From positions 34,882 to 98,881 of the forward strand of contig DIKK01000022.1 of the NCBI GenBank assembly GCA_002423605.1: a stretch of 64,000 nucleotides of DNA, read 5' to 3'. A program made the translations under genes and the position numbers. Shown here one piece after another: positions 4,649 through 48,558 of this stretch; the stretch's first letter is position 1, and the number at the start of each line of letters is the position of its first letter. Below the pieces are notes generated by a model. The model was not told the origin of the DNA and ran no database searches. It saw only the letters and a list, made by a program, of their open reading frames with translations. Source of the stretch: Dehalococcoidia bacterium UBA5620 (GTDB taxonomy: Bacteria > Chloroflexota > Dehalococcoidia > GIF9 > UBA5629).

Positions 4649-4728
4649 TGTGGTCACACGTATATTGGGCCAATACAGGACGGTATTTAATGATATTCCA
4701 CGGGATGGGACGGTATGTCTGGCTCATC

Positions 4729-4766: not shown

Positions 4767-4781
4767 GCTCACGATGCAGGG

Positions 4782-27591: not shown

Positions 27592-27676
27592 ATTTCACCC
27601 CCTATGCCAGAACTCGCTTTTCATAATCGAATGACTAATGCGTTGAATTTTGTCGAAGCGCTACCATTTTGCGATT

Positions 27677-31954: not shown

Positions 31955-32144
31955 ATGTCACCTCTTCTATGAAGCACATCAATTTAGATTGATTTTAACG
32001 GGTGATGTGGCAATCGTATGTGACTTTTGTCGCTATGTGATGACATAATGTAAATATCGGCCTAAGGAGCAAATGCCGCGCGCGCTTTTTTGACTCCCGA
32101 CTTCTCCGCCCTTTTATTGAATACCCGCTCAAAACATATCCCGA

Positions 32145-32387
32145 TTAAAACGGTATGCCAAAGAAGGCAATTGCCAGGGTGGCATGGAGGAATACCGATG
32201 GCCAGAATATGCACCAGATATAGCAGTGATACTTGCTGAACTTCTGATAAGCACGATATTTCGTTAATTTTCCCATTATTTTGGCGCCAGGGATACACCT
32301 GCAGGAAAATAATATAGCCGCACCCGTAATTAAGTTCAATATACCTAAGATGAATATCAATCTGGCTACTAGTATCGTTTGAAACAT
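32145..32387 (-). CDS. Small two-TM membrane protein, His/Cys-rich
   Basis: 80 aa, between the DOMON and Mo-domain genes on the same strand. Confidence 0.4.
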   Translation of the reverse strand: MFQTILVARLIFILGILNLITGAAILFSCRCIPGAKIMGKLTKYRAYQKFSKYHCYIWCIFWPSVFLHATLAIAFFGIPF

Positions 32388-33068: not shown

Positions 33069-33497
33069 TCACGTCTTTTTGCCGATTTTAACGGCGTGAT
33101 TTTGACCGCTTAAGTTTATAAGCTGCTTGCGCATACACTTGCCCATAACGACCAGCAGGCCGGCATCCTTGGCCCGGGCTGCTGCTTCTTCGTTTACGAT
33201 TCCTTCTTGCATCCAAACTGCCTTGACGCCGATCTCGATAGCCTGGCCAATGATAGGCATCACCTGGTCTGGCTTGCGAAAAATATCTACCACCTCAACC
33301 TCCCCCGGTATAGAAAGAAGGTCGGGATAGCTGGTTTTGCCCATTACCTCCTGCTCGTTCGGATTCACCGGAATCACATTGTAGCCCTGCAGGGTTAGAT
33401 AAGAAAAAACCCTGAAGCTGGGATGTTCCTCGTTGGACGATACGCCTACCATGGCCACATTGTGGTAGTTTTTTAATATAGTTTCTTCTGGGCTCAT
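33069..33497 (-). CDS. CoA-binding domain protein (YccU family)
   Basis: NVAMVGVSSNEEHPSFRVFSYLTLQGYNVIPVNP. Confidence 0.7.
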   Translation of the reverse strand: MSPEETILKNYHNVAMVGVSSNEEHPSFRVFSYLTLQGYNVIPVNPNEQEVMGKTSYPDLLSIPGEVEVVDIFRKPDQVMPIIGQAIEIGVKAVWMQEGIVNEEAAARAKDAGLLVVMGKCMRKQLINLSGQNHAVKIGKKT

Positions 33498-33511: not shown

Positions 33512-34366
33512 CTACAAAAACTCATCCAGCAATTTCTCCACTCTGGTAGGTTCGATTGGCTGTTTCACCAGCGCTCCTTTCTGCAAAGCCGGCAACTGCT
33601 CCTCAAATGTAGGGGATTCTTTGTTATAAATAATCCCGATGGGTATGCGGTCGCCCCATTCCTGTGCTTTCTGAAAAGCCTTCAGCTTATCACCCGGGTC
33701 ATAGCCAGCATCCTGCTCCAGCTTGTATACTCTCTCCTGATACCAGCTATAGGTATTTTTATGGTTGAATGTAACGCATGGCTGCAAAATGTCGATCAGG
33801 GCAAAACCCTTGTGCCTGATGCCCGCTATTATCAGGTTAGCCAGATGTTCTATGTCACCGGCAAACCCCCTGGCCACAAAGCCGGCACCGGCGGCTATGG
33901 CTATTGCCATAGGATTAAGCGGCACACCCGCTCCTTCCAGCGTTGTCTTGGTGACAAAGCCGAGGTCGCTGGTGGGAGACGCCTGCCCCTTAGTTAGGCT
34001 ATATATCTGGTTATCATGCACCAGATAGGTTATATCGTGGTTACGCCGCATGGCATGGAGAAAGTGATTTCCACCCTCGGCATAGCCGTCACCATCGCCA
34101 CCCACAGCGATGACAAAAAGCTCCTGATTGGCTATCTTGGCTCCTGCTGCCGAGGGCAATGCCCTGCCGTGAAGAACATTGAGCACATTGCACCTGGTAT
34201 AGTGGGGCAGCTTGCCAGCCTGCCCTATGCCAGAGACCATGAGGACCTGGTGTGGTTTAATACTGAGGCCAACCAGTGCCTGGTTAACGGCGCGTAAGAT
34301 GCCGAAGTTGCCGCAACCGGGACACCATGCCGTGGGGCCGCCTACGTAATCATCCATTGTTATCAT
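33512..34366 (-). CDS. korB: 2-oxoacid:ferredoxin oxidoreductase, beta (TPP-binding) subunit
   Basis: WCPGCGNFGIL ... GGDGDGYAEG TPP motif. Confidence 0.85.
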   Translation of the reverse strand: MITMDDYVGGPTAWCPGCGNFGILRAVNQALVGLSIKPHQVLMVSGIGQAGKLPHYTRCNVLNVLHGRALPSAAGAKIANQELFVIAVGGDGDGYAEGGNHFLHAMRRNHDITYLVHDNQIYSLTKGQASPTSDLGFVTKTTLEGAGVPLNPMAIAIAAGAGFVARGFAGDIEHLANLIIAGIRHKGFALIDILQPCVTFNHKNTYSWYQERVYKLEQDAGYDPGDKLKAFQKAQEWGDRIPIGIIYNKESPTFEEQLPALQKGALVKQPIEPTRVEKLLDEFL

Positions 34367-34367
34367 C

Positions 34368-36077
34368 TCAACATCCCCTCTTTTTCACCTGTTCCACAAT
34401 CTGCGACGGCGTAAAGGGACGACCGTCGAACTTCAATATCTTATCATCGACTTCTTTGCCTGTCTCCGACCGGATAAGGCGAGCCAATTGTCCCGTGGCA
34501 TTGTTTTCCACTACGTAGTTGTTCTTCGAACTGGATAGGACATCGGCAACAGCCTCGGCAGGGAATGGCCATATCTCGCTCAGGTGAAGCAGATTGACAC
34601 TGGTTTTTTCCTTTCGCAAGATGTCAATGGCTTCACGCAAAGCTCCGTAGGTGCTGCCCCAGCCTATCAGCGTATTATCTGCTCTTTCAGTACCATATAG
34701 TCTGGGAGGAGCGATGTCTTGTTTCAAACCGAAGAGCTTGCGCAGCCGCTTTTGTACCATCCGTGTCCTGGTCTCAGCGTCCTCGATGATATGACCTACC
34801 TCGTTATGTTCATCGGCATCTGCTACCACCAACGCACCCTCCTGTCCTGGAAACGCCCTGGGTGAGATGCCCGAATCTGTTATTTTATAACGCAGGTACT
34901 CACCTGATATACCAGAAAAGAGGAGCCCTCTATCGATAGTTACCTTGGAAACGTTGAAACGTTCTACCGTGGCGTATGAACTGGCAAGGTAGTGGTCGGT
35001 AAGCATAATGACCGGCAGTTGGTATTTTTCTGCCAGATTGAATGCTTTTACTGTGAGCCAGAAGGCGTCTTCGACGTTGGCTGGAGCCAGCACAGCCCGC
35101 GGGAAATCACCATGGTGTGCATGAAGCACGAACTGGAGGTCGCCCTGCTCTGTCCGCGTAGGCAATCCGACGGCTGGGCCAGATCTTTGACCATCCACGA
35201 TAACCACCGGCGTCTCAGTGATTCCTGCCAATCCCAGACCTTCTACCATAAGGCAGAAGCCGCTGCCGGAGGTAGCTGTCATAGCCCTGGCGCCGGCATA
35301 GCCCGCGCCGACTATCATGTTTATCGCCGCTATCTCATCCTCCGGCTGTACTACCACCAGGTCGAATTCCCTGGCTTTAGCCTCCAGATATTCCATGATA
35401 GGAGTGGATGGCGTCATGGGATAGGCGGCTATGAATTTGCAGCCGGCTGCTATGGCGCCAAGGGCTATAGCTTCATTCCCATTCAGCAGCATACGCTTTG
35501 AATCGCCCAGGGGACTGATGCGCTGGTTGAAGATACCCTTGAAATTACGCTGGGTATAGTCATAACCTGCTCTAGCTGCTCTGGCATTGTCCTCTCCTGC
35601 TTCCTCAGCGCCGAAGTGGTCACGCAAGACCTTTTCAATTATCCCAAAATCGTATCCCACCAACCCCAGAGCGGCAGCAAGAGCTACAGTGTTAGCCATC
35701 ACCTTGTTCCCAGTCCTCTCCTCAGCTATGCTAGCCAGTGGTACTCCAAACAGATTGCCTCCAGTACTTATATCCTTGACCGACTCAGCATCAAACACTA
35801 TTACGCCATCGTTGGTCACCTCTTTCCGATGCAAGTCAATGCTTTCCTTGTTCAAAGCAATCAAGACATCGACCGGCTCGGCGGCGGCCATAACCTGCGA
35901 TTCCTTCACCCTGACACGGAAGAAGTTGTGGCCGCCCCTCACCCTGGACTCATAGTCCTGGTCAGCAAAAACGTGGTAACCACTACGAGCGAAGACTTTA
36001 GCCAGAAGGAAACCTACCGACTGGACTCCCTGACCGGCTTCTCCTCCAACCATAAAATTGATGTTATGAGTCATCAC
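34368..36077 (-). CDS. korA: 2-oxoacid:ferredoxin oxidoreductase, fused gamma-alpha subunit
   Basis: 569 aa: gamma-like N-domain (GGEAGQGVQS) fused to alpha (pyruvate-flavodoxin oxidoreductase N-domain). Start overlaps korB. Confidence 0.85.
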   Translation of the reverse strand: MMTHNINFMVGGEAGQGVQSVGFLLAKVFARSGYHVFADQDYESRVRGGHNFFRVRVKESQVMAAAEPVDVLIALNKESIDLHRKEVTNDGVIVFDAESVKDISTGGNLFGVPLASIAEERTGNKVMANTVALAAALGLVGYDFGIIEKVLRDHFGAEEAGEDNARAARAGYDYTQRNFKGIFNQRISPLGDSKRMLLNGNEAIALGAIAAGCKFIAAYPMTPSTPIMEYLEAKAREFDLVVVQPEDEIAAINMIVGAGYAGARAMTATSGSGFCLMVEGLGLAGITETPVVIVDGQRSGPAVGLPTRTEQGDLQFVLHAHHGDFPRAVLAPANVEDAFWLTVKAFNLAEKYQLPVIMLTDHYLASSYATVERFNVSKVTIDRGLLFSGISGEYLRYKITDSGISPRAFPGQEGALVVADADEHNEVGHIIEDAETRTRMVQKRLRKLFGLKQDIAPPRLYGTERADNTLIGWGSTYGALREAIDILRKEKTSVNLLHLSEIWPFPAEAVADVLSSSKNNYVVENNATGQLARLIRSETGKEVDDKILKFDGRPFTPSQIVEQVKKRGC

Positions 36078-36108: not shown

Positions 36109-36459
36109 CTAAATCTCTGCCAGTATGGAGTCGCCCTCGACTTTGACCTTGTAGACGCCAAGCTGCTTAGACCCTTTTAGAACCTTAATTGTGGCAGAGA
36201 GGACACCGGAGCCTCTCAACCACCTGGACACATGCCCATCTTTGAGGTCGAACTGTGATCCGTGAAGCGGGCAGGTGACCACCGTGCCCTCCAGCTTGCC
36301 TTGCGCTAACCTGCCACCCATGTGAAGACAACGGCCATCAGCAACATAGTATTTGCCCCCGGCCATAGCCAGCAGAAACTCATGCCCCTGCACCTTCACC
36401 TCCTTCATTGTCCCATCAGTAAGCTCACCAACCTTGGCGATTGAGATAAAGCTACTCAT
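36109..36459 (-). CDS. Rieske [2Fe-2S] domain protein
   Basis: CLHMGGRL...CPLHGSQF (CxH...CxxH). Confidence 0.75.
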   Translation of the reverse strand: MSSFISIAKVGELTDGTMKEVKVQGHEFLLAMAGGKYYVADGRCLHMGGRLAQGKLEGTVVTCPLHGSQFDLKDGHVSRWLRGSGVLSATIKVLKGSKQLGVYKVKVEGDSILAEI

Positions 36460-36509
36460 AACCTACCTCCAAGCTAAATGTATGTTGACAAAAATTATAA
36501 GAAACCCGA

Positions 36510-37088
36510 CTATTTCAAGCGGTTCTCTGCTGCAGCCCAGTCAACATTATTGAAGAAAGCCTCGATGTAGTCAGCCCGCTTCAAGCCGTAATCGGTGATG
36601 AAGGCGTGCTCGAAGACGTCCAATATCAGGATAGGGATACAGCCGGCAGGATGCCCTACATCATGTTCATTTATCCATTGGTTTATTAACTTACCGCTGA
36701 CATTATCCTGATATTGGATAGTCCAGCCGATGCCGCGCATGGTCCCTGTACCCTTGAAGTCCTGAAGCCAGGCCTCGTAGCTGCCAAAGTCCTGAGCCAG
36801 CTTTCTGCCCAGTTTGCTTGCTGGGTCCAATGCCTTCTTACCGCCCAAATTTCCAAAATAAAGCTCGTGCAGGCGCATGCCGTTGAATTCCCAACCCAGA
36901 CGCCGCTTAAGCTCGGCATACTCCGGCGTGCCCACCTTGCCATCCTTAAGCATGGCTGCCAGCGTATCCATGACATTATTGGTGTTGGTTACATAGCCCT
37001 TATAGAGCGTGAAGTGATTGTTCAGTAAGGTATCGCTGAACCCCTGCATACCGATTAATTTGCTATAGTCCTTTGCCTCGTAAGCCAT
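36510..37088 (-). CDS. Fe/Mn superoxide dismutase
   Basis: Fe/Mn-SOD signature DVFEHAFITDY plus N-terminal His ligand region. Confidence 0.85.
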   Translation of the reverse strand: MAYEAKDYSKLIGMQGFSDTLLNNHFTLYKGYVTNTNNVMDTLAAMLKDGKVGTPEYAELKRRLGWEFNGMRLHELYFGNLGGKKALDPASKLGRKLAQDFGSYEAWLQDFKGTGTMRGIGWTIQYQDNVSGKLINQWINEHDVGHPAGCIPILILDVFEHAFITDYGLKRADYIEAFFNNVDWAAAENRLK

Positions 37089-37194
37089 TTTCTTTGCCTC
37101 CTATCTCATTCTATGTTTTGCCAAATATGTCTTCAGCGTTCAATTTCGCCAACAGGCGACAGTTTACTAATTGGCTTATGGTAACCGAAACCCC

Positions 37195-37428
37195 TCAATT
37201 TTTCTTCGAGGAAAAGCGGAAGGGCAGATAAAGAGGGCAGAAGCCGATGATGCTGGTGATGAGAAGGATGATCGCTATGATGCCCAGGACTATTGCGAAT
37301 ACACCATTTATTACGCCCGTAAAGCACAAGATACCGATAACAACGGCTACAATTGCTCGAATGATTCGGTCAAGCGTTCCCATGTTCTGTTTCATTTTAT
37401 TTCTCCTCTTTCGTTTTATTGATATCAT
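37195..37428 (-). CDS. DUF2892 (YgaP-like) small membrane protein
   Basis: MGTLDRIIRAIVAVVIGILCF...FCPLY. Confidence 0.6.
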   Translation of the reverse strand: MISIKRKRRNKMKQNMGTLDRIIRAIVAVVIGILCFTGVINGVFAIVLGIIAIILLITSIIGFCPLYLPFRFSSKKN

Positions 37429-37457
37429 TAGTTTGCCGTAGCAAACCAGTTAACCAC

Positions 37458-38297
37458 CTACTTCTCTACTTCCTTAAGTAAGTCGCTGAAGACATCCGCA
37501 TGATAAACCTCGTGGTCTCTTATCCGTGTAAGCAGCTTTTTCAGCCCGGCATCCGCAACTTCCCTGGCAGCGCGGTCATATTCGGCAGCCACCTCTTTCT
37601 CAATCTTGATATCTGCCTTGAGCATATCGCTCATCTTGACTGATTTATCAACTCCCATATGCTCCAGCCTGGGCGTTCCCTTGCCGCCCACCATCTCCTC
37701 AGCCAGCCAGCCCATGTGCTGCATCTCATTGACAGCCTGGTCCTGCATTTCCTTTTTCATTTCCTCATTCTTCGCTATATATGAGTGCAACAGATACTGC
37801 AACACCACGGTATATTCATGTTCAATGCCCCAGTTCAATATGTCCGTCTCTTTGCCTTTGTGGTCTCCTCTCAGGTCCTTAGCACCTTCCTTCACCGCCT
37901 TATCTACGAAATGGGCAAAGTCGCCATGGTGTGACTCCTCGTCCGATAGAATACGCTTCAGTAAACGTTTAATCGTATGGTCATCGATCATCTCAATATG
38001 CTTCTTATAGAGGGAGATGGCATCCTCTTCCAAAAGCACACCGTTCTTCATCCAGTCAGAAACAGTTTTCCCTTCCATACGCATTTTGCCTCGTTGCAAG
38101 CTGGGCATACCCCCTAACCCAACTACGGCTTCAGCCAGCCAGTCGAGATGGCGCATCTCTTCTCTGCTGATCGCTTCGATCTCGCAGGCCATCTCACCTT
38201 CGCCCATAGCATAAGCGTGGGTTAAATACTGGATGATGGCTCCATGTTCTCCCTCAAGGTCTTCATTCAGCATAACGACGATTTCTTCTTTTTTCAT
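37458..38297 (-). CDS. Tandem ferritin-like diiron-domain protein
   Basis: Two repeats, each with E..H diiron ligand motifs (EEMRHLDWLAE / NEMQHMGWLAE). Confidence 0.6.
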   Translation of the reverse strand: MKKEEIVVMLNEDLEGEHGAIIQYLTHAYAMGEGEMACEIEAISREEMRHLDWLAEAVVGLGGMPSLQRGKMRMEGKTVSDWMKNGVLLEEDAISLYKKHIEMIDDHTIKRLLKRILSDEESHHGDFAHFVDKAVKEGAKDLRGDHKGKETDILNWGIEHEYTVVLQYLLHSYIAKNEEMKKEMQDQAVNEMQHMGWLAEEMVGGKGTPRLEHMGVDKSVKMSDMLKADIKIEKEVAAEYDRAAREVADAGLKKLLTRIRDHEVYHADVFSDLLKEVEK

Positions 38298-38340
38298 TCA
38301 CCCCTCCTTGATTTTTTAAGCAATGAGTTCAGCTTACAGT

Positions 38341-38472
38341 AATCATCGCCTCACTTTTTCTCTCTGGACAGATACTTCTCGGGATTCTGGTCGAAAGCCT
38401 TCTTACAGCCAACAGCGCAGAAGAAGTACCGCTCTCCCTTGTAGTCTGATGTGGCTGGGGCTTTCCTCTCGT
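38341..38472 (-). CDS. YHS/TRASH-like mini-protein (43 aa), putative copper-binding partner of CopA
   Basis: MEVDERKAPATSDYKGERYFFCAVGCKKAFDQNPEKYLSREKK; YFFC..GC...F matches YHS. Below the ORF-track size cutoff. Lies 48 nt upstream of copA. Confidence 0.5.
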
Positions 38473-38520
38473 CGACTTCCATCTTGCATACTGGATCGAT
38501 CGCTATAGTGACACCTCCTC

Positions 38521-41019
38521 TTATTTACTCACTTTAGCCGGCTTGAACCGTCTCAAGCGCAACGAATTTGAAACTACTGTGATGGAGCTGGCTGCCATAG
38601 CCGCCGCCGCCATAATCGGGTTCAAAAAACCATAGTCACCAAAGATAAAGTGCAATCCCTCAGGAACACCAGTGCGCGAAAAAATAGGATATAGCACGCC
38701 CGCTGCCACCGGGATAAGGAGAACGTTGTAGGTAAAAGCCCAGAACAGGTTCTGCTTGATTATGCGCATGGTGCTCTTGCTCAGTGAGATGGCGGTCACA
38801 ATCCCCATCAAATCTCCTCGCATCAGCGTCACCTCTGCGGTCTCCATCGCAACGTCGGTGCCGGTGCCGATGGCAATGCCCACATCTGCCTGTGCCAGCG
38901 CCGGCGCGTCATTGATACCATCGCCTACCATCGCCACCACCTTACCCTGCTGCAGTTTCTTAACCTCACTTGCCTTATGCTCCGGCAGCACCTCGGCCAG
39001 GACCCGCTCGATGCCCGCTTCCCGTGCAATGGCCTCAGCCGTGCGCCTGTTATCACCAGTGATCATTGCCGTCTCTATGCCCATCTTATGTAAGGCCTGC
39101 ACCGCATCCCTGGCGTTGGGCTTAATAGTATCAGCCATGGCAATGATACCTGCCAACTCATTATCTAAGCTCAGGAACATTGCTGTCTTGCCTTCGGCAA
39201 AAAGCCTCTCGGCTCTCTCATCCAATGCTCCCAAGGAAATGCCTCTCTCCTGCATCAACCTGAGGTTGCCCAGCAGAAGCTTTTTGTCATCCACCACAGC
39301 TTCCACACCATGACCGGGAATAGCCTTGAAATCCGAAACTGGTGATACTTCCAGTTTCTTTTCCGCAGCCGCCCTGACTATAGCCTCACCCAGGGGATGC
39401 TCCGACACGCGCTCGGCAGACGCTGCTAGGCGTAGAACCTCGCCTTCAGACGATGCTGGAACAGCTACCACATCGGTAACCTCCGGCTTGCCGCCGGTCA
39501 GCGTTCCTGTTTTATCCAGCAACACCGTATTTATCTGGTGCGACCTCTCCAGAGATTCGCTGCTCCGGAAAAGGATGCCGTTCTCAGCGCCTTTGCCTGT
39601 GCCCACTATAATAGCCGTGGGGGTTGCCAATCCCAGAGCACAGGGGCAGGCGATAATAAGTACGGCTACAAAGTTCAGTAGGGACAAAGTAAGCGTTGGA
39701 GGCGGGCCAGCAAAATACCAGACACTGAAGGTAACTATAGCAATCCCAATCACCGTTGGCACAAAATAGCTGGCAATGACATCAGCCAGACGCTGGATAG
39801 GGGCCTTGCTGCCCTGCGCCTCATCTACCAGCCTGATGATACGTGCCAGCGTGGTATCTTTACCCACGCGTGTCGCCTCGAACTGAAAACTGCCTGTTTT
39901 GTTGATAGTGGCGCCGATAACCTCATCGTCCACCTTCTTATCCACCGGTATGCTCTCTCCTGTGATCATGGACTCGTCAACGCTGGAATAGCCCTGCTTG
40001 ACGGTGCCATCCACAGGTATGCGTTCTCCAGGGCGCACCACGATGATATCACCCACCTGGACGTCCTCCACTGGAATCTCTTTCTCCTGTCCCTGGCGTA
40101 TGACCACTGCGGTCTTGGGATTCAGGCCGATGAGCTTCTTTATCGCCTCCGATGTCTGCCCCTTAGCTCTGGTCTCCAAATAGCGCCCCAATAAAATAAG
40201 GGCGATAATCATGGCTGAGGTATCGAAATAAAGATGAGCTTCCATGCTGGCGGCAGTAAAAATGCCGGGGAACAGGACAGCCACCACACTATAGAAATAT
40301 GCTGCCGAAGTGCCTACGGCGATCAAGGTATTCATATCGGCAGTCTTGTGTTTGAGTGCCCCCCAAGCCCCTCTATAGAACCGCCAACCCGCCCAGAACT
40401 GTACCGGCGTGGCTAACGACCAGAGCAGATAAGGCATATATGGCTGTATCATTAAATAAGGCACAAAGCCCAATACCATGATCAACGAGCCAAGGGCGAT
40501 AGACACGATGAGTCGGTTTCTCACAATCCTGAGATCCCGCTGCGAAGCTGTGGTCACATCCTCCAATGTCTCCGCTTCCGCTCCCAGGTCGTAGCCGGCA
40601 TCTTTCACCGCCTTACGCAAGTCGGTTACCTTGGTATCCTCGGTATATTCCACGGTAGCCCTCTCGGAACCCAGGTTGACGCTGGCAGAAATAACCCCGG
40701 GCACACTGGATAAGGCCTCTTCGACGCGGGCAACGCAAGAGGCACAGGTCATGCCGCTAACCGGGAAGATTGACTTCTTGCTGGCTATCCCATAGCCTAG
40801 CTGCGATATGGTATCCTTGAGCTTGGCGAGTCCTACTTTGTTAGGGTCATATTCGACAGATGCTTCCTCCGAGGCAAAATTGATGTTCGCCCGCTCCACG
40901 CCAGGCGTCTCAGTCAGTCCCTTCTCGATAGTACCGGCGCAGGTAGTGCAGGTCATGCCAGTGATGTGAATCCGAGCCTTCTCAGGCTTCTTAGAACCCG
41001 TTTTCTCCAATGTATTCAA
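38521..41019 (-). CDS. copA: Copper-translocating P1B-type ATPase with two N-terminal HMA domains
   Basis: [12 protein letters not shown] and [12 protein letters not shown] (HMA), [18 protein letters not shown]. Confidence 0.9.
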
Positions 41020-41030
41020 CTCCTCAAGCC

Positions 41031-41351
41031 TTACGCCTCAACTCTGATATCCCAACTATCTATTTTCTTGTCTACATCTTTTAGCGAAGAGATAAGCGCA
41101 GTTAAAGTATTGCATATAATATCGTTGGGGAAAGGTGTCAGAGGAACGTCTTCATCGTTAGCAGTAATCTTGACATTACCTCTCTCTTGATGGATTTCTA
41201 GGCTCTGTATCTTATCCACACCTCGCAGTGAGGAGACCATGCCAACTACTATCCTAGCCAAAAAGTCTTCCACGAAGGCGTTCACTTCTATGGTTATCTT
41301 GCCCACCCATAGTTTTGTCTTAAAACTGCCTGCCATATTATACCTCCTCAA
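41031..41351 (-). CDS. Hypothetical protein
   Basis: 106-aa ORF directly downstream of copA; no motif. Confidence 0.4.
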
Positions 41352-41571
41352 CCAAAATCAGGGCTTGACACTTTCTTTGGCGTATTTCATATTTTCCCCA
41401 CCGCTAGCCTGGTCATAAGACAGGCAGGTTCGCTGGTAGGGTTATAGAATTAATCTCCTAGTCGTTTAGCATATTTCTTAATGTTATCTACTATCCTCTG
41501 CACATAGCTACTCTTTATAGCTATTAAAATACACATCCAACCTACTCCCTTGCCGATAATATAAAACGCTG

Positions 41572-42792
41572 CTAGGCGAACTTATTCTCCTTATGTTTGG
41601 CCGCAATGGTATCTGCCAGGTTGTCCAGAGCCTCGAAATCGGTCTCCCTGGGGAACCCTTTAGCCATCACAGGGGTCAGAACCTCCACCTTCAGATTAGG
41701 TATCAGCCCAGCAATGACCTCCACTGTTTTGCCACCCCAGCCGTATGAGCCGATAATAGACGCGAACTTCAAGTTAGGCCTGAGGGCATTAGCTATGAAG
41801 ACGGCATAGACCACGTTGGGATGCGGACCAGCGAACACCGTAGGCGTTCCGATAACGATTGTGGCCGCATCCACCAGTGCCATTGCCAGCTTGCCCAGGT
41901 CGGTCACCGTCAGGTCGAACTGCTTCACCGTTACGCCTCGCTGTGCCAGGGCTTCAACGAAGTACTTCACCATCTCGCGTGTGCTATCATGCATAGAGAT
42001 ATAGGGCAACACCACGATGTTCTTGGGATCATCGAATACCCAGCTATGGTAGGCATTGATAATAAATTCTGGCTTCTTATGCATAGGACCATGGCTTGGT
42101 GCGATGATGTCGATAGCGTAGTCCTTCAGCCTTTCCAGGTTCTTTTGGATGTTGGTGCGAAAGGGCATCATTATCTCGGCAAAATACCTCTTAGCCGCCT
42201 CGTATACCTGTCCCTCATCCGTAACATATAAGTCGGTGGTTGCCAGATGCGAGCCGAAGAAGTCGCAGGAGAATAAAATCTTGTCCTCCTTTAAGTAAGT
42301 AACTATCGTCTCCGGCCAATGCACCCACGGGGTGTAGATAAACTCCAGAGTTTTGTCTCCCAGAGATATAGTGCCCTTGTCCTCGATGGTTATAAACTGT
42401 TCCTCCGGAACCTGAAGCAGATCGATAAGCGTTCCTTTGCATTTAGGTGAGCATACCACCTTGGCATTGGGGTACAGGTCAAGGACGCAAGTGATAGAAC
42501 CAGAATGGTCCTGCTCGGCATGATGAGACACCACATAATCTATCTTCTTCACGCCTAGCTGCATAAGGTGCTCCACCAGCACGTCCTCCTTGGTGGGGTC
42601 TACTGTATCGATCAGAGCAGTCTTATCTTTTCCCTTGATAAGATAAGAGTTATAGCTGGTGCCATCGGGAAGCGGTATCAGAGAGTCGAATAATCGCCTG
42701 TCCCAGTCAGCAGCACCTACAAAGTAGATATTTGGCTTCATCTCCACCGGTTTCATTATGTTCTCCTCCTCTGTTATTTCAGTTCTTTTCAC
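41572..42792 (-). CDS. Flavodiiron protein (FprA-type: MBL-like diiron domain plus flavodoxin domain)
   Basis: HHAEQDHSGS diiron motif region; C-terminal flavodoxin-like domain. Confidence 0.8.
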   Translation of the reverse strand: MKRTEITEEENIMKPVEMKPNIYFVGAADWDRRLFDSLIPLPDGTSYNSYLIKGKDKTALIDTVDPTKEDVLVEHLMQLGVKKIDYVVSHHAEQDHSGSITCVLDLYPNAKVVCSPKCKGTLIDLLQVPEEQFITIEDKGTISLGDKTLEFIYTPWVHWPETIVTYLKEDKILFSCDFFGSHLATTDLYVTDEGQVYEAAKRYFAEIMMPFRTNIQKNLERLKDYAIDIIAPSHGPMHKKPEFIINAYHSWVFDDPKNIVVLPYISMHDSTREMVKYFVEALAQRGVTVKQFDLTVTDLGKLAMALVDAATIVIGTPTVFAGPHPNVVYAVFIANALRPNLKFASIIGSYGWGGKTVEVIAGLIPNLKVEVLTPVMAKGFPRETDFEALDNLADTIAAKHKENKFA

Positions 42793-42878
42793 ATCTGTGA
42801 TGCCCCGAGTAGCTTTCAGACATCCCAGAGGCCTGCTTTCCTACCTTTCACAGGTTTACTCTCTCCTTAATGCTTCCT

Positions 42879-43568
42879 TTAGCCCGCCATTTTCTCGAAC
42901 TTGTCTTTGCTGGCACCGCACACAGGGCATGTCCAGTTATCCGGTATGTCTTCAAAGGCTGTGCCTGGCTTTATGCCACTATCTGGGTCACCCAGTTCGG
43001 GGTCATAGATATAATTACAAACAGAACATTGATATTTTGCCATCTTAGGCTTTTCCTCCTTTTTTATATCAACATAGCTCGGGGCCGTCTTAGGAGTGGT
43101 ACCTCTTTTGACAATTTGGTAATAAGCATAGGTCATTGGCTCGCCTTCCTTCACCACATCTGCTCCCATAATCTCGCCCACGAAGATGGTGTGCGTCACG
43201 ATGTCTAGATGGTCTATCACTTTAGCCTCAAGATAGGCTAGGGTATTGTCCAGCACCAGCGGCACATTGGTTTCGCCCAGCTTGTAGTCGATATCTTTAA
43301 ATTTATCCACGTCCCTGCCCGACCTGAAGCCGAAACTACCGATAAAATTCAGCGGTGTGCCCTGAGAAAGGATGGAAACGGTGAAAACCTTGCTCTTGGA
43401 AATAAACGTATGGGTCAAATTGCTCCTGTTGATAGCCACCGCAATAATAGGTGGCTCAGAGCAAACCTGGAAAACCGTGTTGGCAATCTGGCCATTGAAC
43501 TTGCCATCATTCCTGGAACAGACAACATAGAGACCGTAACCTAGCTGATAAAGAGCCTTAAGATTCAT
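42879..43568 (-). CDS. Flavin-reductase-domain/rubredoxin fusion (high-molecular-weight rubredoxin-like)
   Basis: Flavin_Reduct N-domain; C-terminal rubredoxin CSVCNYIYD...CPVCG. Confidence 0.75.
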
Positions 43569-43570
43569 TA

Positions 43571-44101
43571 TTAACCTCCATCCAGCGAATGGTGTTCGGT
43601 TTTGCGAAACCAGCCTGCAGGGTCGATGAGATATTCCCTATAATCCACCAGGGCCAGGTAGTGCCCCATCTCCTCCATGGCTAAAGCCTTATAGAAATTA
43701 CTCTCGGCTTCATATGTGGCCTCCTCATTTTGGCTCTTATAAAAGTCCCGTGTCTTATTCTCCATCTCCATAGCCTTGGCTATGGCATTCAGCTCAGCCT
43801 GTTGCGCTTCCCCTTTAGGAACAGCCTTATTTTTAGCCTTGGAGAATAAAGTGCTCAACTTTATCCCCTTGCCGGGCTGCATATCCATTTCAGGCCAGGC
43901 TTTATTGGCCTCGATAGCCTTATATATTTGTTCAAATTTCCGCCGGTGTTTATCCTCTTCTCCAGCTAACCATTGGAAAAGCTCCTTGCCCGTCTTACCG
44001 CTGCTTTCACGGCTTGCCTGCTGGTAATATTCCTTGCCGTCAATCTCCATCTGGATGGAAAATCGAAGCGCCTCTATGGTTTTATCTTGTTCGTCTTTCA
44101 T
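43571..44101 (-). CDS. Rubrerythrin-family ferritin-like protein (no rubredoxin tail)
   Basis: Paired E..H-type helices (EIDGKEYY ... EEMGHYLAL). Confidence 0.5.
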
Positions 44102-44125
44102 TAATCGGCCTCCTTTTCCGTAAAC

Positions 44126-44407
44126 CTATCCTGTTTTTCTCACAAAGACATGGTAGATGCCTTCTCTTTCCGCGATGTCCAGGAACTCATTGCCCGTAGT
44201 TTTGCACCAGCTAGGCATATCTTGCTTGATGCCTGCATCATCAGCTAGTAACTCCAGCACCTGCCCGACCTTCATCTCCTTCATCTTTTTAGCCACATTA
44301 ACAATTGGCATAGGGCAATATAATCCAACACAGTCAAGCGTTTCTTCCGGTTTAATCTTCTCCTGTTCAGCCATTCCACGCCTCATTGCTTCAGCGGTGC
44401 ACCGCAC
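44126..44407 (-). CDS. TusA-like sulfurtransferase
   Basis: CVGLYCPMP motif. Confidence 0.75.
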   Translation of the reverse strand: MRCTAEAMRRGMAEQEKIKPEETLDCVGLYCPMPIVNVAKKMKEMKVGQVLELLADDAGIKQDMPSWCKTTGNEFLDIAEREGIYHVFVRKTG

Positions 44408-44580
44408 TCAGGACATGTGGTGGCTTTCTTGTCCAGCAGCACCACCTTACAGGCAGCACAGCGATAAAAGGTTACCTCGCAAAGCTGGCAAAAAGGGGAT
44501 TCGGCAACAATCAATTTCTCTTCACAGTAAGGGCAGAAACATCCTTCTTTCTTAGCAGACATTTTCTTCTTTTCCTTCAT
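44383..44580 (-). CDS. Small Cys-rich zinc-ribbon protein
   Basis: Four CxxC pairs in 65 aa. Confidence 0.45.
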   Translation of the reverse strand: MKEKKKMSAKKEGCFCPYCEEKLIVAESPFCQLCEVTFYRCAACKVVLLDKKATTCPECGAPLKQ

Positions 44581-44989
44581 CTTCCTCTCCTTTCTCTTCT
44601 AGACCTTGAATTTTGATACCTTTTTTGGTGGCGTAGTCGCGTATCGCCTTATGCAAAGCCTGAGCCCCAAGGTTGGAGCAGTGAAATTTCTGCTTAGGCA
44701 GGCCCTCTAGCTCCGTGGCTACCGAAGCCGGCGTTATAGTTAAAGCTTCTTCCAAGGTCTTGCCCTTTGCCATCTCGCTGACCATGCTAGAGACTGCAAT
44801 AGCAGCACCACAGCCGAACGTTTGGTATTTAACGTCCTCAAGGTGGTTATCTTTCACCTTGATATAGAATGTCATCATATCGCCGCAGACAGGATTGCCC
44901 ACCTCACCAATTCCATCGGCATCCTTAATCTCGCCAACGTTTCGCGGCTTCATAAAATGGTCCATCACCTTTTCGCTATATATCGGCAT
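44552..44989 (-). CDS. iscU: Fe-S cluster scaffold IscU/NifU-like
   Basis: GNPVCGDMM...FGCGAAIA...HCS. Confidence 0.85.
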   Translation of the reverse strand: MPIYSEKVMDHFMKPRNVGEIKDADGIGEVGNPVCGDMMTFYIKVKDNHLEDVKYQTFGCGAAIAVSSMVSEMAKGKTLEEALTITPASVATELEGLPKQKFHCSNLGAQALHKAIRDYATKKGIKIQGLEEKGEEDEGKEENVC

Positions 44990-44992
44990 AAC

Positions 44993-46183
44993 TTAACCCC
45001 CTCTTTGTTTCATAAATTTGGCGTATAACGGAGACATTTGCCTCAGCCTATCCACGATATGCGGCAATTTCTCCAAAACATAATTTATATCATCTTCACT
45101 GGTATCTAAGCCCAGACCAAAAAGCAAAGAGCCCTGGGCAATCTCGTGCGATATGCCCATGGCGATAAGAACGTGTGAGGCTTTAAGCGCCCTTGAGGTG
45201 CAAGCCGAGCCGCTGGAGACTGCGATGCCCTGGCTGTTGAGCAGCATAAGCATAGCCTCGCCCTCAATGAACTCGATGCAAAAGCTGGCATGGTGTGGCA
45301 GTCGCTTGGTAGGATGCCCAGTGAGGGTAGCATGGTCTATATTAGTCAAAACGCCATTTACCAGTCGGTCTCTGATGCGAGAAAGCTTCTGAGATCGGGA
45401 ATCCATGTCCCGTTTAGCTAGCTCGGCAGCCTTGCCTATGCCAACTATAGCCGGCACGTCCTCGGTGCCCGGTCTCCTGCCACCTTCTTGGATGCCTCCA
45501 TCCATCAATGGTATGAGCCTCAGTCCCGTACGTATCCATAAAGCACCAGAACCTGTAGGGCCATAAAACTGGTTGCCTGCCAGGCTCAGTGCGTCTACCC
45601 CTAGCCCCTTCACGTCTATAGGTACATGGCCGGCGCTGGCCACAGCATCGGTGTGGAAAACTATCCCGGCTTCTTTTACTTTTTTAGCTATTTCAGCCAG
45701 AGGTTGAATTGTACCTACTTCACCATTGGTGTGCATGACGGACACCAATATCGTGTCCTTTCTGATCTGTCTGGCTACCTCAACTGGGTCAACCAGGCCA
45801 TAGTTATCCACTGGCAATAAAGTCAGTTCAAAGCCGGCTTTCTCCAGAGTCCTTGCAGTATTGAGCACAGAAAAGTGCTCAATAGCAGAAACGATTATAT
45901 GCTTGCCTTTACTGGACTGCGCTTGTGCCAGTCCCTTGAGCGCTAGGTTATTAGATTCACTGCCGCTGGAGGTGAAGATTATCTCATCAGGGCTACCTCC
46001 AATAAGATTGGCGACCTGCTCTCTGGCACCTTCTATAGCCTCTCTGGTTTGGTCACCCCATGCATGTATTGACTGTGGGTTACCGTATATTTCCCGGAGG
46101 TAGGGCAACATTGCATCCACAACCTCAGGCAATAGCGGAGCAGCAGCAGTGTAATCTAAATATACCTTTCGCTCAGCTTCCAT
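44993..46183 (-). CDS. iscS: Cysteine desulfurase (class V aminotransferase, NifS/IscS)
   Basis: [12 protein letters not shown] ... PLP-Lys region; catalytic-Cys loop SSGSACTS. Confidence 0.9.
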
Positions 46184-46262
46184 TTCTCACCTCACTTAGC
46201 AATTTAGACCAAAACGAAGCATCAGTCTGTGACTTTTGTCGCATAGAAATTATGCAGAATCT

Positions 46263-47174
46263 TTACCTTAGCCTTTGTAGGTAGTGATTTGCCCTGAGAG
46301 CGGCTTTAGCGCCCTCGCCAGCTGCTACTACTATCTGCTTCTCAGGAACGGTGGTTACATCGCCTGCGGCGAACAGTCCCGGCACATTTGTCTCATTGTC
46401 GCAATTCACTACAATCTCACTATACTGATTCCGAGCAACAACACCTTCAGCCAGAGTTGAGTTAGGTATAAGCCCTATCTCTACAAAGACGCCGCTGACC
46501 TGCAACGTCCTCTCCGCCTTGTCATTCAAGCCCTTTATTTTTATCCCGTCAACAAACTTGTCGCCAGTTATCTCCATCACCTCGTGCTCCAGAAGCATGG
46601 TCAGGTTACTGGCCGCCTTCACTTTGTCTATCAAAATGGAGTCGCCGGTGATAGGAGTCAGCGACACCAGATAAACGTGCTCAGCGATCTTGAGCATGTC
46701 ATCAACTGCTTCTAATGCCGAGTTGCCGCCACCGATGACCGCTACCTTCATATCGGAAAACAAGGGACCATCGCAGCTAGCACAATAGGCAACTCCCCTT
46801 CCCTTGAGCCTTTCCTCCCCTGGTACGTTCAACTGCCGGGGGCGTTTGCCTGAGGCAATTATCACTGCCTTCGACTGATATGCTTCGCCTTTATCCGTCC
46901 TGACTTCAAATATACCATCCTTCTGAGATAAACTGGGAACACTTTCTCCCAGTTTTATATCCAGTGGAAACTGCTTTACCTGTTCTTCAAACTTGCGTAT
47001 CAGCTCAGCCCCCTCAATAAACTGGTAGCCCATGTAGTTCTCTATGCCCATCGTCCAGTTCACCTGACCGCCTATGTCTTTGCTGATGAGCAAGGCCTTC
47101 AGCTTCTTCCGCGCGGCATATACCGCTGCGGTCATGCCTGCGGGGCCGCCTCCGATAATGATTAACTCATACAT
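46263..47174 (-). CDS. trxB: Thioredoxin-disulfide reductase
   Basis: GGGPAGMTAA FAD motif; redox-active CASCDG. Confidence 0.9.
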   Translation of the reverse strand: MYELIIIGGGPAGMTAAVYAARKKLKALLISKDIGGQVNWTMGIENYMGYQFIEGAELIRKFEEQVKQFPLDIKLGESVPSLSQKDGIFEVRTDKGEAYQSKAVIIASGKRPRQLNVPGEERLKGRGVAYCASCDGPLFSDMKVAVIGGGNSALEAVDDMLKIAEHVYLVSLTPITGDSILIDKVKAASNLTMLLEHEVMEITGDKFVDGIKIKGLNDKAERTLQVSGVFVEIGLIPNSTLAEGVVARNQYSEIVVNCDNETNVPGLFAAGDVTTVPEKQIVVAAGEGAKAALRANHYLQRLR

Positions 47175-47190
47175 CTTCGCTAGCTTTCCC

Positions 47191-47466
47191 TCACAAACTC
47201 AGCTTTTCTCTAAGCCACTTTTCATCGAAGCCGACCGATATATCACTATCAACTTCAATTACCGGTACACCGATTTGTCCTGTCTTGGCTATCATCTCAT
47301 CGCGGGCGGCCTTATCAGCAGCCACATCAATATTTTGATAGTAAATTTTGTTGTCATCGAGGAATTGCTTTGTCCTTTTGCACCAGGGACAGGTTGTCGT
47401 GGAGTAGACCTTAACTTGATGTGCCATTATGTTCTCCTCAGCTTCCGTGATTAGGGGATAGGACAA
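47191..47466 (-). CDS. Glutaredoxin-like protein (YruB/NrdH-like)
   Basis: VKVYSTTTCPWCKRTKQFL. Confidence 0.7.
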   Translation of the reverse strand: MSYPLITEAEENIMAHQVKVYSTTTCPWCKRTKQFLDDNKIYYQNIDVAADKAARDEMIAKTGQIGVPVIEVDSDISVGFDEKWLREKLSL

Positions 47467-47683: not shown

Positions 47684-47857
47684 CTAGGTAGGGTATTTCC
47701 GCAACTTATCTATGCCGCAGCGGGTATTTTGAGTGGCTTTAACCCTTGCCCTTATTTCAGCCAATAGCTCCCATGCCCCTTTCTCATCGCGGTCTATCAT
47801 AATCTGCTCCAGCCTGGTTATTTGCTGCTCATCCAGCGTTATCACAGCCTTGGGCAT
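47684..47857 (-). CDS. Small hypothetical protein (57 aa)
   Basis: ORF MPKAVITLDEQQITRLEQIM...; below the track cutoff; weak support. Confidence 0.25.
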   Translation of the reverse strand: MPKAVITLDEQQITRLEQIMIDRDEKGAWELLAEIRARVKATQNTRCGIDKLRKYPT

Positions 47858-47880: not shown

Positions 47881-48558
47881 CTACCTTCGCAACCTTTTCT
47901 GAACTGCATCACTGATCAGCTCTCTGATTGCGTCAGAGGCGATCCACTTGGCGCTGGCTGAGTCAATTTGCTTTATCTCAGTCGCCATTTTGATTGCCAC
48001 CTCATTCAGAGCATGGCTGCGCTTGCCGAGCTGGCGTAACGCCCAGTTAACTGCCTTTTTCACAAATGTTCTGCTGTCACAGGCCTCCCTTTCTATAACA
48101 GGCAAAAACTTGAGAAATTCCCTGTCATCTGTTTTCTTATCGCTGACAGCCAAGCAAGCCATCAACACGAACCCCGCCCGCTTCACAAACTCCTCATCGC
48201 AAGCGCCCCACTCAACAGCTTTCGTGTAGGCGAACCTGGTTCTTTTAAATAGTTTCATGCAGCACTGGTCACACACCTCCCAACTATCGAGGTCTTTAGC
48301 CCAGCTTTCCATCTGGTCTTCGGTGACCAACCTCGGGTCATCTATCATCGCCGCCAGTATCCGCGCCTCTCTGATACCTGCATTCCAGAGTTGCTGCGCC
48401 AGAAGATGGTCCTTGCCGATTTCCTTAGCAAGCTCGGTCAGCTTCGGCATGGATACGCCGAAGTTTTTCTCCGCGGCTATGCCATACCTGGCCATACCTT
48501 TTACAGCTTCGGGGTTAGACAGCATCCTTAGTCGCTCAAGTATATCTTTGTACTGCAT
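47881..48558 (-). CDS. DNA alkylation repair enzyme family protein (AlkD-like HEAT repeats)
   Basis: All-alpha HEAT-like repeats with the family pattern ...LAQQLWNAGIREARILAA.... Confidence 0.55.
   Translation of the reverse strand: MQYKDILERLRMLSNPEAVKGMARYGIAAEKNFGVSMPKLTELAKEIGKDHLLAQQLWNAGIREARILAAMIDDPRLVTEDQMESWAKDLDSWEVCDQCCMKLFKRTRFAYTKAVEWGACDEEFVKRAGFVLMACLAVSDKKTDDREFLKFLPVIEREACDSRTFVKKAVNWALRQLGKRSHALNEVAIKMATEIKQIDSASAKWIASDAIRELISDAVQKRLRR

Follow-up and report, generated by a model that had tools for sequence, protein, structure and literature searches.

A probable stress-defence gene block of an anaerobic Dehalococcoidales bacterium, with a CRP-type palindrome as a candidate promoter element for part of it

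The DNA considered here is a stretch of 64,000 nucleotides (nt) from Dehalococcoidia bacterium UBA5620 (contig DIKK01000022.1, positions 34,882 to 98,881), referred to below as the window, in whose numbering all coordinates are given unless a related locus is named. It carries a long run of minus-strand genes for the detoxification of oxygen and reactive oxygen species (ROS), iron-sulfur (Fe-S) cluster assembly, copper export and ferritin-like proteins, together with two uncharacterised proteins, hyp101 and h57. This block is probably a lineage-specific, selectively maintained stress defence of an anaerobic Dehalococcoidales bacterium, which would protect Fe-S proteins from O2, ROS and reactive nitrogen species, a reading that is held with reasonable rather than strong confidence. 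Part of the block is probably under the control of a CRP-like promoter element, of which no earlier description was found. The first-pass annotation had described 17 consecutive minus-strand genes at 36109-47466; the strand and the coordinates stand, while the count becomes 16 open reading frames (ORFs), because a double ferritin-like ORF of 279 amino acids (aa) had been counted as two genes. Every gene family named there is confirmed by Pfam, NCBIfam and PDB sequence searches. The boundaries 36109-47466 are arbitrary, and the same-strand run comprises about 25 genes, from 48971 to 31047. Upstream it continues with h57 (47684-47857), AlkD (47881-48558) and NfeD, up to 48971, and downstream with the alpha and beta subunits of a 2-oxoacid:ferredoxin oxidoreductase (OFOR), a CoA_binding_2 protein, a DOMON protein, an 80-aa membrane protein, an MsrP-like protein and an 80-aa cytochrome b-like protein, down to 31047. 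The nearest genomes are those of uncultured Dehalococcoidales (Chloroflexota), whose flavodiiron proteins (FDPs) are at most 80% identical to that of the window; the host is thus bacterial, and sigma-70 logic applies to its promoters. Several metagenome contigs from JGI and ENA, the longest of 344 kb and some of them from oil-sands tailings, carry exact copies of the locus.

The clustering was assessed with tblastn, by comparing the window proteins with 80 genome loci anchored on the FDP gene (the L numbers used below name the loci or contigs compared). The block families are kept together, despite rearrangement, in about 15 related contigs (L007-L015, L017, L020, L023, L087, L089-L091 and L094), and L008 and L013 each hold 14 of the 16 cluster families of the window. 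Only the loci of Dehalococcoidales and Chloroflexi have these neighbours. The FDP orthologues of Desulfobacterota, Planctomycetota, Bacteroidota and other phyla, 63-69% identical, have almost none of them, the exceptions being an occasional IscS/IscU, flavin reductase-rubredoxin fusion (FlrRd) or rubrerythrin (Rbr). Gene orders vary within the order Dehalococcoidales, with a window type, an L014/L015 type and an L010-L012 type. The order in L014 is Rieske-Rbr-IscS-IscU-Znr-DsrE-TusA-FlrRd-Fer2x-FDP (Znr, zinc ribbon; Fer2x, double ferritin-like protein), that in L015 is alike without a detected Fer2x, and that in L012 is Rbr-FlrRd-FDP-Fer2x-SOD. The gaps between these genes in relatives hold further genes of the same theme, coding for reverse rubrerythrin, rubrerythrin-thioesterase, 1-Cys peroxiredoxin, AhpD-like, bacterioferritin, desulforedoxin-like, DsrE-like, universal stress (Usp), DUF438-hemerythrin-PAS and DJ-1/PfpI proteins. 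In four loci (L009, L020, L040 and L091) SufC-SufBD stands in place of NifS-NifU at the same position of the cluster. Here the function of Fe-S assembly has passed to non-orthologous genes, which is the strongest argument for functional clustering. Since the genes are kept together despite rearrangement, and their neighbours are nearly absent outside the order, the clustering appears to be selected rather than accidental.

A simpler account would hold that only gene order has been inherited, among close and collinear genomes whose promoters and regulation are unrelated. Flanking genes without an obvious stress role (NfeD and the OFOR subunits) are indeed syntenic in relatives as well, four spacers exceed 100 nt, and no operator is common to all spacers. 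Yet the grouping of the genes persists in several different orders, the Fe-S module is exchanged at one position, the insertions are thematically coherent, the junctions are tight or overlapping, and two or three units are preceded by the same palindrome, always equally far from a -10-like hexamer; all of this makes inheritance alone an unlikely explanation. The block has also been considered as a horizontal island, a reading that was set aside: no integrase, transposase or tRNA was seen in or beside it, and its GC content is unremarkable. The window as a whole holds no tRNA and no RNA family at Rfam gathering thresholds, and the region of 36-48 kb none at E <= 1. A limited literature search on oxidative-stress genes of Dehalococcoidia found no report of such a cluster, a search that cannot establish absence.

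The evidence for shared control comes from a palindrome. Scans for Rex, HcpR, CsoR (two types), CopY, CueR, IscR (two types), OxyR and FNR sites returned chance-level or coding matches only, with the exception of two matches, which led to this element. An identical 15-mer, GCGACAAAAGTCACA, is found in two intergenic regions of the block, and a related copy in the leader of the glutaredoxin-like gene grx. The 16-bp palindrome, TG[C/T]GAC-N4-GTC[G/A]CA, is a 6-4-6 inverted repeat with the CRP geometry TGYGA-N6-TCRCA. Site A (TGCGACAAAAGTCACA, 46228..46243) lies 45 nt upstream of iscS/nifS, with a -10-like TAAATT at 46206-46201; site B (AGCGACAAAAGTCACA, 32019..32034) precedes the MsrP-like gene, with TAAAAT at 31997-31992; and the weak site C (TGTGACAAAAGTTATT, 47574-47559) lies in the grx leader, with TATGCT at 47537-47532, all on the minus strand. 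At all three sites the -10-like hexamer starts 30 nt after the centre of the palindrome, which therefore falls at -41.5 of the starts predicted near 46194, 31985 and 47525 respectively, the position of a class II activator. In L013 (5870) and L017 (5844), TGTGACAGAAGTCGCA occupies the position orthologous to site A, ahead of a desulforedoxin-like gene and iscS; L009 has a copy with two mismatches before its Rbr gene, and L114 a perfect copy 85 nt upstream of grx-trxB.

The element is also widespread in metagenomes, where a scan with TGYGACARAAGTCRCAKAC showed it on at least 120 contigs, 80 of which were examined. The palindrome is in intergenic DNA in 63 of these 80, and a TAnnnT hexamer starts exactly 30 nt after its centre in 42 of the 72 unique instances, the background being about 2-3 per position. 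The element has TGCGAC as its preferred half-site, together with a conserved spacer rich in A and a TACA flank on its 3' side. A gene of the Crp/Fnr family lies no more than 1 kb from the palindrome in at least 10 of the 80 contigs. The encoded proteins have cNMP_binding and HTH_Crp_2 domains, are 33-51% identical to the product of the gene that follows h57 in L009, at 4644-5357, and match NCBIfam CRP best, at scores far under its cut-off. Other recurrent neighbours are Nfu, Hsp20, HrcA, GrpE, small zinc-ribbon proteins, grx-trxB, reverse rubrerythrin and MsrP-like genes. As a separate observation, a zinc-ribbon protein of 77-92 aa (MxxxKCPGQDMRxLRV...) is encoded inside the cluster in L014 (8904-9137) and directly downstream of the palindrome in the metagenome contigs L131 (92 aa), L153 and L164. 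A weaker relative of the palindrome, TCGACAAAATTCA, is found in the window at 27644-27656 (minus strand), upstream of an EVE-domain gene and just past the stop codon of a gene further along the same strand (27677-29695), which codes for a 672-aa DUF255/thioredoxin-domain (DsbH-like) protein.

The fixed spacing raises the question of whether this element of 16-20 bp is the upstream part of an alternative-sigma promoter and not a site for a transcription factor. The constant distance to the -10-like hexamer in those 42 instances would suit such a promoter, as would the heat-shock genes that the element precedes (hrcA, grpE and hsp20, often controlled by sigma factors) and the extracytoplasmic function (ECF) sigma genes that flank it in two contigs. 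Nevertheless, a near-perfect inverted repeat suits a dimeric regulator better than a sigma factor, the element is centred at -41.5, the canonical class II activator position, and the regulatory genes that recur beside it are of the Crp/Fnr family and not sigma genes, so that the sigma-factor explanation is given little credence. With a CRP/FNR-type palindrome at -41.5 of two, and possibly three, promoters, co-regulation of part of the block becomes plausible. It would extend at least to the iscS and MsrP-like units, and weakly to grx-trxB, under a CRP-like protein encoded outside the window, in which no Crp/Fnr gene is found.

The regulators that were first expected are not apparent. The first-pass annotation had suggested that the block is a coordinated regulon and had pointed to intergenic regions, for example 37090-37195, 38300-38340 and 41352-41571, as places to look for shared PerR/Rex/CsoR-like operators. 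The functional clustering behind that idea is upheld by conservation with shuffling and by themed insertions, but these three intervals have no operator in common, and relatives do not conserve the spacer at 41352-41571. Genes for transcription factors are absent for about 10 kb to either side of the block. A search for exact dyads and enriched k-mers in 13.9 kb of intergenic DNA from 16 loci gave only ribosome-binding sites and start contexts; two leads from it, TTATAATTTT and GGGAAAATTA, failed on inspection. The 235-nt spacer before hyp101/copA does contain a perfect 7-7-7 inverted repeat, ATAGCTATAAAGAGTAGCTAT (41504-41524, minus strand), composed of the self-complementary octamer ATAGCTAT and a near copy, GTAGCTAT, and read as ATAGCTAT-N5-TAGCTAT from 41524 to 41504. 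It is not proposed as an operator, because it is not conserved: the corresponding spacers of relatives contain repeats resembling repetitive extragenic palindromes or miniature inverted-repeat transposable elements (REP/MITE-like). Short repeats of this type (TCATTCTGAGCGCAGCGAAGAATCT and TCATTGCGAGCGAAGCGTGGCAAT), which give rise to spurious small ORFs, are located in intergenic spacers of relatives at 2640-2670 in L007, 11210-11240 and 4600-4700 in L008, and 4470-4500 in L091.

Relatives of this genome do suggest a PerR connection. In L008, L013, L091, L093 and L094 a Fur-family gene is found immediately upstream of h57/grx; it codes for a PerR-like protein of 125-131 aa that is matched best by PerR models (NCBIfam E 2e-35) and is followed by h57 within 0-35 nt. 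The slot between NfeD and h57 is held by this gene in L008 (2578-2955) and L094 (4606-5001) and by AlkD in the window, and the Fur-h57 pair is present also in L091 (4586-4966) and L093. In four species the perR promoter (TTGACA, a spacer of about 17 nt and a -10 of TATAAT, TACAAT or TAAAAT) is directly followed by a Fur-type box with the consensus GATAACGATAACTATTATTAATA, at 2550 in L008, 3986 in L013, 4562 in L091 and 4578 in L094. Furthermore, a PerR-like gene is found upstream of FDP in nine loci of other phyla, mostly 0.4-2 kb away. It could thus be supposed that the block is a PerR regulon as in Bacillus, Clostridium and Desulfovibrio, repressed through shared Fur-type boxes by a PerR encoded elsewhere. 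The window, however, has no Fur-family gene by tblastn with the L008 PerR-like protein. A position weight matrix built from the four autoregulatory boxes scores no higher than 12 bits anywhere in the 64 kb of the window, less than in most of the shuffled controls, and the B. subtilis PerR and Fur consensus sequences give 3-mismatch matches only. In relatives the box stands before perR alone and not before the cluster operons, with one moderate exception in L009 and no enrichment. A PerR regulon is hence improbable for this genome, in which the PerR-like repressor that precedes the block of relatives has been replaced by a DNA-alkylation-repair gene.

The arrangement of the genes is compatible with a few transcription units. 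Twelve of the 15 internal junctions are of at most 80 nt or overlap, and the gaps are mostly of 2-60 nt. Larger gaps separate FlrRd from FDP (122 nt), FDP from hyp101 (235 nt) and DUF2892 from SOD (106 nt), and a spacer of 256 nt precedes grx. In relatives the FlrRd-FDP gap is 4-51 nt (L013, L017, L028 and L040), the FDP-hyp101 gap 26-34 nt (L087 and L090) and the FDP-CopA gap 22 nt (L013); in five relatives 22-78 nt separate FDP from CopA or hyp101. A single terminator-like hairpin is found inside the block, at the stop codon of DUF2892 (37213-37191). On the basis of spacing and of promoter- and terminator-like sites, the predicted units are grx-trxB, iscS through FDP, sod-Rieske-OFOR and onward, and the MsrP-like pair. 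The iscS-FDP unit probably runs on through hyp101, copA, YHS, ferritin and DUF2892, possibly with an internal promoter before hyp101.

The spacer before grx has a structure of its own. Directly after h57 there is a near-consensus sigma-70 promoter, TTGACA-17-TATAGT (47663-47635, minus strand), followed about 100 nt further on, and 85 nt before grx, by a terminator-like hairpin with a T-run (47532-47513, minus strand). The intervening DNA could code for a short leader RNA or an attenuator, or the hairpin could be the terminator of the upstream operon. The fold of this leader is only modestly better than that of shuffled sequences (z -2.1) and has no Rfam match; no riboswitch is claimed. In an alignment of the h57-grx spacers the only conserved feature is the TTGACA promoter, common to the window and L013.

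Several points weigh against a single, jointly controlled defence block and should be considered together. The four long spacers (256, 122, 235 and 106 nt) are of sufficient length for independent promoters, and both the operon boundaries and the co-regulation are inferred. The statistic of the palindrome in the window (three matches against 0.23 expected) is inflated, because the pattern was derived from the data; site C has three mismatches, and FDP, hyp101/copA and sod are not preceded by a palindrome. The window does not encode the CRP-like regulator, whose link to the motif is drawn from the proximity of genes in other contigs. Much of the conservation is found among fairly close relatives (FDP 67-80% identical), in which flanking genes are syntenic too, and part of the gene order could simply be inherited. 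Finally, the sequence of the FDP alone does not separate O2 from nitric oxide (NO) specificity.

The gene products, from which a mechanism can be proposed on the known biochemistry of their families, begin with a thiol-reducing pair. The first is a glutaredoxin-like protein of the YruB/Cp9 type with a CPWC active site (47191..47427, this and all the following genes being on the minus strand; Pfam Glutaredoxin E 1e-17). Its ATG at 47427 gives 78 aa, as does the JGI gene call, and the ORF reaches to a TTG at 47466; NCBIfam TIGR02196 GlrX_YruB scores it at 86.9, with a cut-off of 88.55. Next to it, after a gap of 16 nt, is the reductase initially named TrxB (46263..47174; Pfam Pyr_redox_2 E 1e-43), a low-molecular-weight flavoprotein (redox motif CASC) that resembles TrxR or the C-terminal part of AhpF. 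Its matches to NCBIfam AhpF (E 3e-99) and TRX_reduct (E 8e-90) stay under the respective cut-offs, that to the C-terminal half of AhpF being slightly better. This pair would supply thiol reducing power.

The Fe-S assembly genes follow. The cysteine desulfurase of NifS/IscS type (44993..46183) matches Pfam Aminotran_5 (E 4e-75) and NCBIfam FeS_nifS (E 7.5e-150), and the scaffold of NifU N-terminal/IscU type (44552..44989) matches Pfam NifU_N (E 5e-47) and exceeds the cut-off of NCBIfam NifU_clost (196.9 against 187.9), so that by NCBIfam the former IscS/IscU assignment is refined to the clostridial NifS/NifU type. A double zinc ribbon of 65 aa with four CxxC pairs (44383..44580; weak Pfam matches to Zn_ribbon_3/DZR) is placed between IscU and TusA, a position that it also holds in relatives with a NifS/NifU module. 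The TusA-family sulfur carrier (44126..44386, the ORF extending to 44407) matches Pfam TusA (E 1e-25) and NCBIfam TusA (E 2e-16). NifS, NifU, the zinc ribbon and TusA would together rebuild Fe-S clusters and relay sulfur.

The oxygen-reducing genes lie in the middle of the block. A rubrerythrin-like diiron four-helix protein of 176 aa with two ExxH motifs (43571..44101; Pfam Rubrerythrin E 3e-11) has no rubredoxin domain, and its sole PDB sequence match is 2fzf (E 1e-4). The flavin reductase-rubredoxin fusion (42879..43568) combines Flavin_Reduct at residues 7-151 (E 1e-34) with Rubredoxin at 178-224 (E 2e-24) and matches PDB 1i0r (E 1e-50) as well as rubredoxins; with this fusion of domains, and with FDP next door across the 122-nt spacer, it has the features of a high-molecular-weight rubredoxin (Hrb), which in Moorella is the redox partner of the FDP. 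The FDP itself (41572..42756, the ORF extending to 42792; 394-406 aa; Pfam ODP E 3e-28 and Lactamase_B) has the diiron-ligand motifs HAEQDH, VHW, CDFF and SHGP in its translation. Its closest solved homologue is Moorella FprA (1ycf, E 3e-64, aligned over residues 2-387), and the whole chain of about 400 aa is covered by 1ycf, 1e5d and 6frm, with a weak flav_short match at 262-396. A metallo-beta-lactamase-like N-domain and a C-terminal flavodoxin-like FMN domain, with no further domains, place it in class A, as a putative O2/NO reductase. Electrons would pass from NAD(P)H through the Hrb-like protein to FDP, which would reduce O2 (or NO) to water (or N2O), and the rubrerythrin-like protein would remove H2O2.

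These same genes admit the reading that the core is mainly a nitrosative-stress module, in which NO would be scavenged by FDP and Hrb, working as an NO reductase under an HcpR-like regulator of the CRP family. The closest solved homologue of FDP was deposited as 'nitric oxide reductase', the Moorella FprA/Hrb pair reportedly has NO reductase activity, and the palindrome has the CRP/HcpR-type TGTGA-N6-TCACA geometry. Against this stand the SOD, rubrerythrin-like and MsrP-like proteins of the window and the peroxiredoxin, AhpD-like and desulforedoxin-type genes of relatives, all directed at oxygen species, as well as the lack of hcp or any NO-specific gene in the window. The wider neighbourhood of the palindrome, with its heat-shock genes, suggests rather a general stress circuit. 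The NO module thus retains a modest share of probability and is, on balance, rather unlikely, the broader defence against oxygen, ROS and reactive nitrogen species being preferred.

Copper and iron genes follow FDP and hyp101. The P1B-1 copper-exporting ATPase CopA (38521..41019; Pfam E1-E2_ATPase, Hydrolase and two HMA domains) scores 642 with NCBIfam ATPase-IB1_Cu (TIGR01511), over the cut-off of 397, and its translation has all the signature motifs of P1B-1 pumps (GMTCTTC, GMTCASC, ACPCAL, TYNV, MAASS and DKTGT). The neighbouring YHS mini-protein (38351..38506; Pfam YHS E 1e-12) is interpreted as a detached CopA domain, since YHS is fused to the C-terminus of CopA in relatives (as proteins of 886-888 aa in L087 and L089; in L007 and L008 the fusion is indicated by the reading frame). 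Its ancestral start codon is here ATA (38506-38504), and the first ATG is eight codons in (38482). All ten other orthologues examined start with ATG-GCx-ATx-GAy-CCx (MAIDPVC), and the window reads ATA-GCG-ATC-GAT-CCA. Translation would therefore use either a rare ATA start or a start eight codons later, the latter at the cost of the first Cys in DPVC. Together with this detached domain, CopA would expel Cu(I), which destroys exposed Fe-S clusters.

The pair of tandem ferritin-like genes that had been proposed is instead a single ORF (37458..38297), whose 279-aa product has two bacterioferritin-type four-helix domains (Pfam Ferritin in two stretches), aligns over its full length to PDB 9viw (E 2e-38) and resembles mini-bacterioferritin 9qq4 in its N-terminal domain; it would sequester Fe(II). 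Directly past its stop codon (37396-37465, minus strand) is a desulforedoxin-like relic of about 60 nt. L007 has the intact gene in this position, and the relic can be aligned with its 3' half, the 5' half having been lost and one Cys codon changed to TAC. The long spacers were searched for relics of the peroxiredoxin, PAS, cupin, DsrE, reverse rubrerythrin and rubrerythrin-4HBT genes of relatives, and none was found. The DUF2892/YgaP-like small membrane protein (37195..37428; Pfam YgaP-like_TM E 4e-20) is confined to the block of this lineage and absent from related loci. An Fe/Mn superoxide dismutase (SOD) with a divergent N-terminal domain (36510..37088; Pfam Sod_Fe_C E 2e-23), which matches NCBIfam Superox_dis_Halo under its cut-off (E 4e-30), would remove superoxide, and a soluble Rieske [2Fe-2S] ferredoxin with CxH and CxxH motifs (36109..36459; Pfam Rieske E 5e-17) ends the part of the run first described.

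The continuation downstream comprises OFOR alpha (34368-36077) and beta (33512-34366), the OFOR genes scoring 707 with NCBIfam OAFO_sf, above its cut-off, then CoA_binding_2 (33069-33497; Pfam CoA_binding_2), a DOMON-domain protein (32423-33058; Pfam DOMON E 7e-26) and an ORF for the 80-aa membrane protein (32145-32387). An MsrP-like molybdoenzyme of 221 aa (31289-31954; Pfam Oxidored_molyb E 1e-33) is shorter than MsrP and matches NCBIfam MsrP far under its cut-off (E 7e-20); the 80-aa cytochrome b561-like membrane protein beside it (31047-31289) has a weak Ni_hydr_CYTB match (E 3e-4). The two resemble the MsrPQ pair for methionine-sulfoxide repair and would repair oxidised proteins of the envelope. 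In relatives the block is followed by the OFOR genes (L009, L013 and L017) or by CoA_binding_2 and DOMON (L089), and it is closed by the Oxidored_molyb/cytochrome b pair in L087 and L090. As CoA_binding_2, DOMON and this pair trail the block in more distant relatives, they are included in the conserved unit. Elsewhere in the window, a full-length bacterial serpin (24365-25645, minus strand; Pfam Serpin E 2e-121) adjoins a 157-aa protein without a family match.

The two uncharacterised proteins deserve separate mention. The product of hyp101 (41031..41336), 101 aa long with the topology 2 x (beta-beta-alpha-beta) and no Pfam match, is encoded between FDP and CopA in relatives too, and belongs to a family of proteins of about 100 aa for which a profile search gave 581 clusters. 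In the P0245, P0300 and P0325 set its domain is fused to the C-terminus of MobB, once together with the PF04060 FeS motif, and once to a metallophosphoesterase. MobB is a GTPase of molybdenum-cofactor synthesis. These fusions hint at a role in the handling of cofactors or metal centres, and the lack of a conserved Cys or His makes a classical copper-chaperone role unlikely. The second protein, h57 (47684..47857), has 57 aa, an invariant Cys47, 94 homologues and no Pfam match. In relatives it is always encoded directly behind the PerR-like gene (L008, L091, L093 and L094), and here behind AlkD. Its AlphaFold2 model (pLDDT 79) has an extended N-terminus and two helices, with no Foldseek or PDB match. 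Its N-terminus bears a resemblance to ribbon-helix-helix proteins, but a comparison by hhalign with approximate N-terminal sequences of two of them was not significant (probabilities of 13.6% for NikR and 3% for CopG).

Several known systems provide a frame for this arrangement. Class II CRP/FNR promoters have a dimer site centred at -41.5, the CRP consensus being TGTGA-N6-TCACA. The window sites share the pattern TGYGA-N6-TCRCA, centred 29.5 nt before the -10 hexamer, and may be bound in the same way; the element prefers TGCGAC over TGTGA as its half-site. At least two units (iscS and MsrP-like), and weakly grx, would start at class II-type promoters for a dimer of the CRP/FNR family. A parallel in gene content is the oxidative-stress operon rbr-fprA-hrb of Moorella thermoacetica (Clostridium thermoaceticum), reportedly described by Das et al. 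in 2001 and Silaghi-Dumitrescu et al. in 2003. As in that operon, a rubrerythrin-type protein, a class A FDP and a flavin reductase-rubredoxin are encoded side by side on one strand. The order in the window is, however, Rbr-Hrb-FDP, the Rbr is without a rubredoxin domain, and the trio is surrounded by Fe-S assembly, CopA, ferritin, SOD and MsrP-like genes in a block that comprises about 25 genes. The TrxR-like and Grx-like proteins Cp34 and Cp9 of Clostridium pasteurianum form a peroxiredoxin-reducing pair; the window likewise has a small glutaredoxin-like CxxC protein beside an AhpF/TrxR-like flavoprotein, but no peroxiredoxin is present in its block, as it is in L009 and L089. In Clostridioides difficile, reverse rubrerythrins and FDPs reduce O2 and H2O2 (PMC7482061). 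As in the PerR regulons of Clostridia, a PerR-like gene heads the block in relatives, whereas the window has neither the gene nor the box. The PerR-regulon genes of Clostridia are mostly scattered round the genome and not in one block. Like CopA-CopZ/CsoR or CueR operons, the window combines a P1B-1 ATPase with two HMA domains and an adjacent accessory metal-binding protein, here the YHS mini-protein; unlike them, it has no CsoR, CopY or CueR gene or operator and no CopZ gene, and its CopA is embedded in, and probably co-transcribed with, genes for O2 defence. Double ferritin-like proteins (DFLPs/dFTNs) have been described as a class (bioRxiv 10.64898/2026.08.25.747088). The window protein appears to be of this kind, with one chain and two bacterioferritin-type four-helix domains, and the literature found on these proteins holds no description of a bacterial (Chloroflexota) stress-block context.

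The block differs from these systems in its scale, in the fixed presence of Fe-S assembly, a Cu(I) pump, a double ferritin and an MsrP-like pair, and in three conserved uncharacterised proteins. Control in this genome is apparently of the CRP type rather than of the PerR type, again unlike the known systems. It may even be, as a tentative extension that is possible and still doubtful, that the block is one output of an undescribed global stress circuit of uncultured Dehalococcoidia and other anaerobes. A CRP-like activator at TGCGAC-N4-GTCGCA (-41.5) would there jointly switch on oxidative-stress, Fe-S-assembly (NifS/NifU and Nfu), MsrP-like and heat-shock (hrcA, grpE and hsp20) genes, layered on a PerR-like/h57 module that is half lost here, with h57 and hyp101 as members. 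The block itself is made mostly of known parts and does not overturn current understanding.

Dehalococcoidales are strict anaerobes of importance in subsurface carbon and organohalide cycling; they are mostly uncultured, and their survival of O2 is poorly known. The block provides a compact parts list for their oxygen defence, backed by comparative genomics and of value for annotation and the design of experiments. It ties Fe-S assembly and Cu(I) export genomically to the removal of O2 and ROS, consistent with the protection of exposed Fe-S clusters. It also offers leads, namely the promoter element with its candidate family of CRP-like regulators, the PerR-associated 57-aa protein, and the MobB-associated domain protein between the O2 reductase and the copper pump.

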